From the NCBI GenBank assembly GCA_000320545.1, contig ADNK01002960.1, positions 1 to 64,000 of the forward strand: a stretch of DNA of 64,000 nt. Direction: 5' to 3'. A model generated the notes under the pieces. That model made no database searches, was not told the DNA's origin, and saw nothing but the letters and a program-made list of their open reading frames with translations. Shown in pieces: positions 1-2,858 of this stretch (the stretch's first letter is position 1; each line of letters opens with the position of its first letter). The position numbers and the translations under genes are program-made. The DNA comes from Bigelowiella natans CCMP2755. Taxonomy: Eukaryota > Protista > Cercozoa.

Positions 1-2858
1 TTTGTTGATTTACGATTGCTTCGGTGTTGCTGTCGCTATGGCATATTTGCCACTATTAGGTCGTACACCGTTAATCCATGGCGCCAGAGGGGGTAAGCTG
101 GAGATTGTGCAGTATCTGGTTGACAAGAAGGCAAATATCGAGGCAAAGGACAATTACGGTGGGTATGCTAGGAGCAGCATTAGCAGTAGCAGCGGTAGCT
201 AGTACCAAGAAGTTGGTAGATGATTAGCAGTTGCAGTGTGATTCATGCCTAGTAAAAGCATCAATTAGCACGGTGAGAGAGGAATTATTGAGTCTCATGG
301 TTCCATTGCGACCGAGTTGAAGGAGATGGGAGGAGAAGGAAAATTTTAGTATTAGTCGGAACTGGTAGTATTTAGTATTTTATTAACATAAGTAGCAATT
401 AGTAGAAGTAGGCAAGAAGGAGCAGTGGAATTGAGAATCTACATAGCAGTACTAGCAGTATTATCACAGGGACGTCGCACAATATCGTCATCATCATCAA
501 GATTGGATTGTTATTTTACGGCATAATTTTTCATTGATCATCATTCTCATCGTTAGCCTGGATTGCCATTTCATAAGATGAGAGGGCGATCATCAAGAGG
601 GAAGGGGAGGGAAGGGGAGAGCAATATTTGTACTTCGTTTTGATTCTTTTGGATGTTTGTTGATTTACGATTGCTTCGGTGTTGCTGTCGCTATGGCATA
701 TTTGCCACTATTAGGTCGTACACCGTTAATGCTTGGCGCCGAAAAGGGCAATCTGGAGATTGTGCAGTATCTGGTTGGCAAGAAGGCAAACATCGAGGCT
801 AAGGACAATGCCGGTGGGTATGCTAGGAGCAGCATTATTAGTAGCAGCGGTAGCTAGTAGCAAGAAGTTGGTAGATGATTAGCAGTTGTAGTGTGATTCA
901 TGCCTAGTAAAAGCATCAATTAGCACGGTGAGAGAGGAATTATTGAGTCTCATGGTTCCATTGCGACCGAGTTGAAGGAGATGGGAGGAGGCAGATTTGG
1001 ATGTTAATAGAAAGTGGAAGTAGGAAATATTTCATTAAAATAAGTAACAATGAGTAGAAGTAGCAAGAGGTAACAGTGGAATTGAGAATCTACATGGCAG
1101 TATTAGCAGTAGTATCACAGGGACGTCGCACAATATCGTTATCATCATCAAGATTGGATTGTTATATTGCGGCATAGTTTTTGCATTGATCACCATTCTC
1201 ATCGTTAGCCTGGATTGCCATTTCATAAGATGAGAGGGCGATCACCAAGAGGGAAGGGGAGGGAAGGGGAGAGCAATATTTGTACTTCGTTTTGATTCTT
1301 TTGGATGTTTGTTGATTTACGATTGCTTCGGTGTTGCTGTCGCTATGGCATATTTGCCACTATTAGGTCGTACACCGTTAATCCATGGCGCCGAAAAGGG
1401 TAAGCTGGAGATTGTGCAGTATCTGGTTGACAAGAAGGCAAATATCGAGGCAAAGGACAATTACGGTGGGTATGCTAGGAGCAGCATTAGCAGTAGCAGC
1501 GGTAGCTAGTACCAAGAAGTTGGTAGATGATTAGCAGTTGCAGTGTGATTCATGCCTAGTAAAAGCATCAATTAGCACGGTGAGAGAGGAATTATTGAGT
1601 CTCATGGTTCCATTGCGACCGAGTTGAAGGAGATGGGAGGAGAAGGAAAATTTTAGTATTAGTCGGAACTGGTAGTATTTAGTATTTTATTAACATAAGT
1701 AGCATAGAGTAGAAGTAGCAAGAGGTAACAGTGGAATTGAGAATCTACCTGGTAGCATTAACACTATCATCACAGGGACGTCGCACAATGTCGTCATCAT
1801 CATCAATATTGGATTGTTATATTGCGGCTTAGTTTTTCCATTGATCATCATTCTCATCGTTAGCCTGGATTGCCATTTCATAAGATGAGAGGGCGATTAT
1901 CAAGAGGGAAGGGGAGGGAAGGGGAGAGCAATATTTGTACTTCGTTTTGATTCTTTTGGATGTTTGTTGATTTACGATTGCTTCGGTGTTGCTGTCGCTA
2001 TGGCATATTTGCCACTATTAGGTGAGACACCGTTAATCCATGGCGCCGAAACGGGTGAGCTGGAGATTGTGCAGTATCTGGTTGGCAAGAAGGCAAACAT
2101 CGAGGCTAAGAACAAATGGGGTGGGTGTGCTAGGAGCAGCATTATTAGTAGCAGCGGTAGCTAGTAGCAAGAAGTTGGTAGATGATTAGCAGTTGCAGTG
2201 TGATTCATGCCTAGTAAAAGCATCAATTAGCACGGTGAGAGAGGAATTATTGAGTCTCATGGTTCCATTGCGACCCAGTTGAAGGAGATGGGAGGAGAAG
2301 GAAAATTTTAGTATTAGTCGGAACTGGTAGTATTTAGTATTTTATTAACATAAGTAGCAATTAGTAGAAGTAGCAAGAAGTAGCAGTGGAATTGAGAATC
2401 TACATAGCAGTACTAGCAGTATTATCACAGGGACGTCGCACAATATCGTCATCATCATCAAGATTGGATTGTTATTTTACGGCATAATTTTTCATTGATC
2501 ATCATTCTCATCGTTAGCCTGGATTGCAATTTCACAAGATGAGAGGGCGATCATCGAGAGGGGAGGGGAGAGGAAGATTTGTATGTCGCTGTGATTTATT
2601 TGGGTGTTTGTTGATTTGCGATTGCTTTGATGTTGCTTTCGGTATGGCATGTTTGTCACTATTAGGTGAGATACCGTTAATGTATGGCGCCAGAGGGGGT
2701 AACCTGGAGATTGTGCAGTACCTGGTTGGCAAGAAGGCAAACATCGAGGCTAGGGACAATGACGGTGGGTATGCTAGGAGCAGCATTATCAGTACCAGCG
2801 ATAGCTAGTAGCAAGAAGTTGGTAGATGATTACCAGTTGCAGTGTGATTCATGTCTAG
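1..2858 (+). repeat. Tandem array of ~650-bp exon+intron units, each holding one 99-bp (33-aa) ankyrin exon
   Basis: Exon starts at 60, 715, 1367, 2022 and 2666 (periods 655, 652, 655, 644). Introns are near-identical. Every exon is flanked by ttag| and |gtgggt in phase 1. Confidence 0.97.

Follow-up and report, generated by a model that had tools for sequence, protein, structure and literature searches.

An array of recombining one-repeat ankyrin exons with diversified surface codons in a predicted ROCO kinase gene of Bigelowiella natans

Brown-algal LRR-ROCO genes carry one 72-nt leucine-rich repeat (LRR) per exon (Zambounis et al. 2012, PMC3341825; Teng et al. 2024, PMC11378527), and shuffling in Ectocarpus is reported overwhelmingly at LRR and TPR loci (PMC3341825 / PMC11378527). 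Fungal NLR sensors are described as bearing ANK, TPR and WD40 repeats of high internal conservation (Dyrka et al. 2014, PMC4986451; het-d/het-e, PMC12222747), while concerted evolution is known in animal domain repeats and has been tied to host–parasite conflict (PMC5100051). Here we describe a tandem array of ankyrin exons in a ROCO gene of Bigelowiella natans CCMP2755, a species that now serves as culture host for giant viruses whose host range is strain-specific (10.1101/2025.11.19.688996). The array lies at the start of the window, by which we mean the whole analysed stretch of 64,000 nt (GenBank assembly GCA_000320545.1, contig ADNK01002960.1, positions 1 to 64,000, forward strand). It belongs neither to the brown-algal LRR-ROCOs nor to the fungal NLRs, as its repeat is not an LRR and its nucleoside triphosphatase (NTPase) is not NACHT/NB-ARC. 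Literature searches (Bigelowiella ankyrin/Roco, chlorarachniophyte ankyrin exons) found no description of the array, with subscription papers including the B. natans genome paper outside their coverage, and none of 99-bp ankyrin exons turned up; the conserved exon half, used as a pattern against JGI metagenome contigs, gave 0 matches. We favour, with moderate confidence, the interpretation that the array consists of recombining one-ankyrin-per-exon units fronting a ROCO kinase and forms a diversifying, probably anti-parasite, intracellular sensor.

Diversity within the ankyrin exon array

The array runs on the plus strand and comprises five ankyrin exons, each exactly 99 bp long and encoding a single repeat. 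All five are preceded by TAG and followed by GT, with a Gly codon split 1|2 at either end (phase 1), so that the five same-phase 99-bp exons proposed in an earlier, sequence-only reading of this DNA are borne out. An alternative donor 4 nt further downstream was rejected because it gives 103-nt exons and breaks the frame.

60-158, plus strand: ankyrin exon 1, 99 bp, phase 1-1; splice ends, Pfam Ank match
159-714, plus strand: intron 1, 556 bp, repeat-unit intron
715-813, plus strand: ankyrin exon 2; Pfam Ank match, exon-2-type end joined to the next ankyrin exon in three RNA contigs of run X17
814-1366, plus strand: intron 2, 553 bp, private divergent block mid-intron
1367-1465, plus strand: ankyrin exon 3, equal to exon 1 save 4 nt in codons 13/14
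1466-2021, plus strand: intron 3, 556 bp, recombinant, of intron-1 type, then intron-2-like with private sites
2022-2120, plus strand: ankyrin exon 4; Pfam Ank match
2121-2665, plus strand: intron 4, 545 bp, diverged 3' end (array edge)
2666-2764, plus strand: ankyrin exon 5; Pfam Ank match, exon-to-exon joints in X15 RNA contigs
2765-3262, plus strand: intron 5, 498 bp, unit-like start of ~94 nt, remainder decayed (73% over one 80-nt stretch)

Exon-plus-intron units measure ~655 bp and are spaced 644–655 bp from start to start. Exons 1, 2, 4 and 5, each scanned separately, passed the Pfam Ank cut-off; exon 3, outside that scan, is 94% identical to exon 1 at the protein level. The array and its gene extend upstream of the window start, hence five units is a minimum. 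A blastn search of one unit against the window found no unit copies outside 1-2858 or on the minus strand, and no inverted or dead ankyrin exon copies within the window (the upstream part of the gene lies outside it).

Twenty-four of the 99 exon columns are variable, and pairs of the five exons differ at 4–17 of 99 nt. Twelve of 32 codons change amino acid and four show silent change only, yielding modules with a mean column identity of 86% over 5 x 32 amino acids (75–94% pairwise to exon 1). The amino-acid-variable module positions are 1, 2, 3, 5, 6, 9, 10, 13, 14, 16, 25 and 33, the last through a single K/R difference. The residue sets R/E, IH/ML/MY, RG/EK/ET and NY/NA/KW/ND listed beforehand are all present, alongside T/I at 6, K/N/E at 16, D/G at 25, D/N at 1 and the K/R at 33.

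The surface set tested was 2, 3, 5, 13, 14 and 33; the scaffold described in PMC4308713 randomises 2, 3, 5, 10, 13 and 33, sited on the concave-face beta-turn and first helix, and every position of both sets varies among the five exons. Amino-acid variation affects all six surface codons compared with 6 of 26 others (Fisher P=0.001). The proportion of nonsynonymous differences (pN) is 0.436 at the six surface codons and 0.064 in the framework, with a whole-exon synonymous proportion (pS) of 0.117. Among units 1–4, 11 of 18 surface columns are variable compared with 63/555 intron columns (P=1e-6), or with 25/100 in the most variable 100-column intron window (P=0.004). Nonsynonymous change thus clusters at the surface as the sequence-only reading had claimed, and the opposite outcome named there, exon divergence no greater than that of the introns and unclustered at the surface, did not hold: surface variation exceeds both intron and synonymous levels. 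Selection likely preserves differing residues at the predicted binding surface.

Flanking intron sequence had been described as nearly invariant, which applies to the intron flanks and not to the middles or the array edge. Introns 1–4 have 71/557 variable columns and differ pairwise at 21/555 to 54/542 nt. Their first 170 nt show 0–5 differences and their last 170 nt 1–2 (introns 1–3), whereas the middles differ at up to 33/213 positions (15%) and the 3' end of intron 4 departs from the others at 21–22/160. Each intron carries private sites. The array edges are the most diverged portions; such divergence is the expected outcome of in-register unequal exchange, which the array therefore fits. 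A Dscam-like docking structure in the conserved intron flanks was considered and is unsupported (z -0.71, one 10-nt inverted pair).

Fourteen sites are informative among units 1–4, six of type 1,3|2,4 followed by eight of type 1,4|2,3, and a shuffling test on this two-run ordering gave P=7e-4 (100,000 shuffles). The exons alone require at least three recombination events (Rm=3, five exons). Units 1 and 3 are identical across 397 columns save four nonsynonymous bases in codons 13/14. Exons 1 and 5 share one hexamer at these codons and exons 2 and 3 share the other, despite differing backgrounds, hence the patch travels separately from its flanks, over no more than 15–19 nt. Units are therefore recombinant, as had been suggested, but the mosaic nature of exon 3 is reduced to this short patch, a tract of 15 nt at most, for which direction and donor are indistinguishable: exon 1 can be read equally as exon 3 with an exon-5 patch. 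Likewise, intron 3, previously seen as a mix of intron-1 and intron-2 types, equals intron 1 through unit column 397 and beyond it has 8 sites in common with intron 2, but also 12 private ones. The pattern is one of in-register homogenisation plus short patch exchange (concerted evolution).

The host gene, its relatives and the read data

The array is followed by the remainder of a gene model of 42 open exons and 1419 residues, running from exon 1 to a stop codon at 11966. It was derived by a splice-site dynamic programme, with some exon ends uncertain between 6824 and 10159; this superseded a hand-made COR-to-kinase exon chain, which had no open frame. Introns starting at 5657, 9469 and 10517 are modelled as GC-AG type (GC donor after AG).

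3263-3473, plus strand: C-terminal capping ankyrin repeat and charged linker; 71% to Bigna1/147185, same phase as the array
4055-5656, plus strand: Roc GTPase exons (P-loop, switch II, G4); Pfam Roc, tblastn with P0001
5735-8800, plus strand: predicted COR plus the region after it, with modelled ends for some exons; COR-A in paralogues P0001, P0123, P0271
8862-9823, plus strand: linker domain from COR to kinase, modelled exons; model aligns with P0271 throughout
10016-11966, plus strand: tyrosine-kinase-like C-terminal domain and stop codon; Pfam PK_Tyr_Ser-Thr E 3.9e-16, open exon chain, colinear with Amorphochlora P0128/P0273

Three exons match Pfam Roc positions 1-27, 59-91 and 91-119, of which exon 5142-5270 alone passes the curated Roc cut-off (E 2.9e-7), and with its motifs present the Roc domain is a predicted GTPase. 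The model is 50–54% identical over 770–903 columns to B. natans P0001, P0123 and P0271, all carrying COR-A; the one window exon of this region scanned by itself gave no Pfam match. By sequence, COR follows directly after Roc and the gene is assigned to the ROCO family. Model residues 250-1408 are colinear with an Amorphochlora Roc-COR-kinase (P0128), which links the kinase to the window's gene. The ROCO context proposed for the array accordingly stands, through the Pfam Roc match, the COR-bearing paralogues and one model continuing through the kinase.

The closest proteins are from B. natans, namely Bigna1/77309 (85% over the Roc exon), 134218, 147185, 135601 and 135587, and the window gene's own product is not among the listed proteins. 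Bigna1/147185 comprises an N-cap, two modules and a C-cap, is 71% identical to the window region with differing surface residues, and matches chains of designed ankyrin repeat proteins (DARPins) with E values of 1e-25 or lower, its cap aligning to DARPin C-caps. Ankyrin repeats and Roc occur within one chain in P0126, a relative derived from transcripts. P0126 and P0272 are near-identical ANK-Roc-COR records of a related paralogue whose overlapping ankyrin part differs at module position 14 only (N/Y), which may be an allele or a repeat mis-assembly. Elsewhere in the family, P0001 has a kinase at its N-terminus and P0271 an AAA-like C-terminal domain below cut-off. In the capping repeat (3263-3473, P0050) paralogue differences fall mostly in the first helix and the charged linker is conserved, hence diversification may extend to the cap surface. 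Queried for homologues, the capping exon gave 0 among 149 candidates, and an ankyrin profile search returned mainly generic ankyrins, with one B. natans-named protein among the 120 matches listed. A single-sequence AlphaFold model of P0050 was poor (predicted template modelling score, pTM, 0.43, helices merged) and was set aside.

Of 24 sequencing runs listed, seven were examined as contigs or reads. All sampled Roc-COR words were present in 14 DNA runs from one species, which may be the window's source, and six marine RNA runs held 6–14% of the sampled words. Depth at the unique 3' junction was 40 (X1) and 71 (X13), with 0 differences over 579–628 nt. Single contigs inside the repeat unit reached 229–526. 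Four X13 contigs over one exon end, differing in their letters, summed to 1059 compared with the single-copy 71, and all contigs just inside the intron summed to 1316. We estimate, as a rough figure because contig depth is not a copy number, that the genome holds some 15–19 close-type units; depth summed more widely, which reached ~25,000 at one position, was not accepted as a measure of copies since overlapping contigs are counted repeatedly. There are three versions of the capping exon, two of them beyond the window's, with their own intron-5 versions and ~single-copy depth. A different donor-intron type was observed in loose ends of 19–24 DNA contigs.

Marine RNA contigs contain exon-end to exon-start joints (X15, X16, X18), an exon-2-type end joined before an ankyrin exon start (X17, n = 3), and joints from ankyrin exon to capping exon and from capping exon to the next exon (X15), showing that the same splice sites are used in close relatives. 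No exon-skip joints attributable to the gene were found in the seven runs, although these data are weak, with short reads and contigs spanning single units. Contig fragments add at least the codon 13/14 pairs LW, LG, LR, HY and FT to the window's RG, EK and ET, and carry W, Y, Q, N and F at position 5 with T-P-L nearly constant. These variants were translated by hand from single-contig pieces, and loose-end consensuses with agreement <1 were excluded from the 13/14 list.

Mechanism and competing explanations

Unequal crossing-over and gene conversion likely homogenise whole units and alter their number; the long near-identical intron flanks would provide homology for in-register exchange, and short conversion tracts would carry two-codon patches from unit to unit. 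As all exons share a length of 99 bp and phase 1, gaining, losing or exchanging a unit would preserve the frame. New surface combinations arising in this way would be retained by selection. The ankyrin stack between N- and C-caps would make one concave surface, and a ligand bound to it would control both the GTPase (Roc-COR) and the kinase. Purely by analogy, we propose an immune role for the array, in which the ligand would most likely be a fast-evolving parasite protein, such as a giant-virus protein. A bolder version, which we regard as speculative and rather unlikely, is a genome-wide natural DARPin library, with dozens of ankyrin cassettes swapped among ROCO genes by targeted short-tract conversion and their combinations setting strain-specific resistance to giant viruses such as ChlorV.

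Several points weigh against a diversifying sensor. The surface set was taken from DARPin design, and natural ankyrins have high entropy at 2, 3, 5, 10 and 13 anyway (PMC4308713). There are only five exons, non-independent of each other and compared by counting tests rather than a codon model; changes come in multi-base blocks, so that events are far fewer than variable columns, and the ratio, 4.7, cannot be taken as a reliable dN/dS when each pair has only ~3 synonymous sites at the surface codons. Framework columns vary at an intron-like frequency (9/81 vs 63/555, units 1–4), and the most variable 18-column intron window holds 8 variable columns against 11 at the surface. Variants taken from the reads are a mixture of paralogues and alleles and, at 80% likeness, may include other organisms. 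The raw same-species RNA of run X21 yielded 36 reads of <=60 nt from ~6% of the run, with no joints, and is uninformative on skipping.

One alternative is neutral concerted evolution under relaxed constraint, in which units are homogenised mechanically, the framework is kept by purifying selection and surface codons tolerate patches from older paralogues. The same positions vary across natural ankyrins (PMC4308713), the more divergent exon and intron types in loose ends from the same genome are possible donors, intron middles also have divergent blocks (up to 33/213) and independent events are few. Tolerance, however, would cap pN near pS or the intron rate, and pN is 0.44 compared with 0.12 and <=0.155, respectively. 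Moreover, the sole differences between units 1 and 3 across 397 columns fall in codons 13/14, and a wide range of residues is found repeatedly at these same codons. We consider neutrality unlikely, while ranking it first among the alternatives.

More doubtful is a sensor or adaptor that diversifies by the same genetic mechanism against a non-immune ligand, for example in prey or mate recognition, with an endogenous fast-evolving partner or in conflict with selfish elements. The window data point to no particular ligand, and brown-algal ROCOs are reported to respond to other stresses too (PMC11378527). Against this, the combination of high internal repeat identity and surface diversity is described as enriched in fungal non-self receptors (PMC4986451), and B. 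natans strains are reported to vary in susceptibility to ChlorV strains (10.1101/2025.11.19.688996).

Equal exon length and phase, with identical splice sites on all units, would also permit in-frame skipping, and Ectocarpus ROCO repeat exons are reported to be alternatively spliced (PMC11378527). A repertoire generated within a clone, by regulated exon skipping or by programmed somatic cassette rearrangement (Dscam-like or adaptive-like), nevertheless appears improbable. The seven runs gave no attributable skip joint, a weak argument given their single-unit stretches. The sole informative junction, at which an RTP exon follows an exon-2-type end, matches genomic order, the conserved flanks are without stable RNA structure (z -0.71) and the window has no inverted or dead exon copies.

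Finally, near-identical repeats are known to assemble poorly (PMC12222747) and unit order is beyond the reach of short-read contigs, but mosaics created by collapsed or chimeric repeat copies are hardly credible given five intact exons, private sites in each intron, the recurrence of unit variant letters in short-read DNA contigs (from runs that are possibly the window's source, so non-independent) and a unique 3' junction matched with 0 differences over 579–628 nt.

Neighbouring features and comparison with known systems

Beyond the ROCO gene, the window contains a 21-kb element (24996-45967), likely an endogenous Polinton-like virus, whose 236-bp terminal inverted repeats show 3 differences. 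It encodes a capsid-like open reading frame (ORF) at 32517-34286 on the minus strand, whose Atlas feature matches (0.95-0.97) are to viral clusters including an NCLDV-type capsid, and a helicase-like ORF at 39463-42942 (AAA_30, UvrD_C_2); a comparison of the capsid-like ORF with viral contigs found no relative. TpA is nearly erased over 25.0-42.0 kb, with an observed/expected ratio of 0.00-0.19 per 500 bp compared with ~0.6-0.9 for genes of the host. CpG is also low. Element ORFs of 589, 756 and 945 residues have 1, 0 and 1 tyrosines, respectively, with His and Cys in excess. The loss looks like TpA-to-CpA/TpG hypermutation, a change that is the reverse of fungal repeat-induced point mutation (RIP), and a literature search found no description of it. 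Depletion drops off sharply near 42.0-42.5 kb within the element (42000-45967), and tyrosine is at normal levels in a 649-residue ORF there (43689-45638), which suggests that this segment was captured or underwent repair more recently. Another decayed element probably accounts for a further TpA-poor stretch (0.15-0.32) at 13500-14900, just 3' of the ROCO gene. An 81-bp tandem repeat of 3.1 copies lies at 59543-59791.

Among described systems, the array resembles the brown-algal LRR-ROCOs in having N-terminal repeats joined to Roc-COR, each repeat encoded by a same-phase exon of equal length, repeat-unit recombination, diversified concave-face residues and a multigene family. It differs in its 99-nt ankyrin repeat, theirs being a 72-nt type I LRR, its C-terminal kinase, its occurrence in a rhizarian unicell and the in-register homogenisation of whole introns. 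Inverted or inactivated repeat exons are reported in introns of brown-algal ROCOs, whereas the window array has none (the upstream part of the gene lying outside the window). The parallel with brown-algal exon shuffling drawn in the sequence-only reading is thus apt for exon layout, ROCO context and recombination, while the in-register homogenisation is closer to that of fungal NLR repeats.

With the fungal NLRs, as they are described, the array shares very similar repeats that recombine, concerted evolution, a few hypervariable codons on the ankyrin inner helix and hairpin, and an internal identity of 86% over 5 x 32 amino acids compared with their ~85% over >=100 amino acids (ours as mean column identity). 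The NTPase here is Roc(-COR) rather than NACHT/NB-ARC, and each repeat occupies a separate exon, whose ~555-bp intron is homogenised along with it; the word "intron" is absent from the PMC4986451 main text.

Like DARPins, the locus combines an N-cap, near-constant modules and a C-cap with variation at 2, 3, 5, 10, 13, 14 and 33 (PMC8683736, PMC4308713, PMC8229355), a likeness that is partly circular as DARPin positions were picked from natural ankyrin variation. Unlike them, it is natural, varies also at 9 and 16 and is fused to a GTPase-kinase, with binding predicted. The order of Roc-COR then a tyrosine-kinase-like domain is shared with LRRK-type and other ROCO kinases, including chlorarachniophyte P0128, P0129 and P0131, although these three carry WD40, Sel1 and LIM N-termini.

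Diversifying ROCO repeat sensors would extend from brown algae to a unicellular rhizarian with another repeat type, which points to convergence. The giant viruses cultured on B. natans make the old proposal of protist ROCOs as immune receptors directly testable. The co-duplicated introns, moreover, provide a built-in neutral yardstick and a record of breakpoints, both of which arrays without introns lack.
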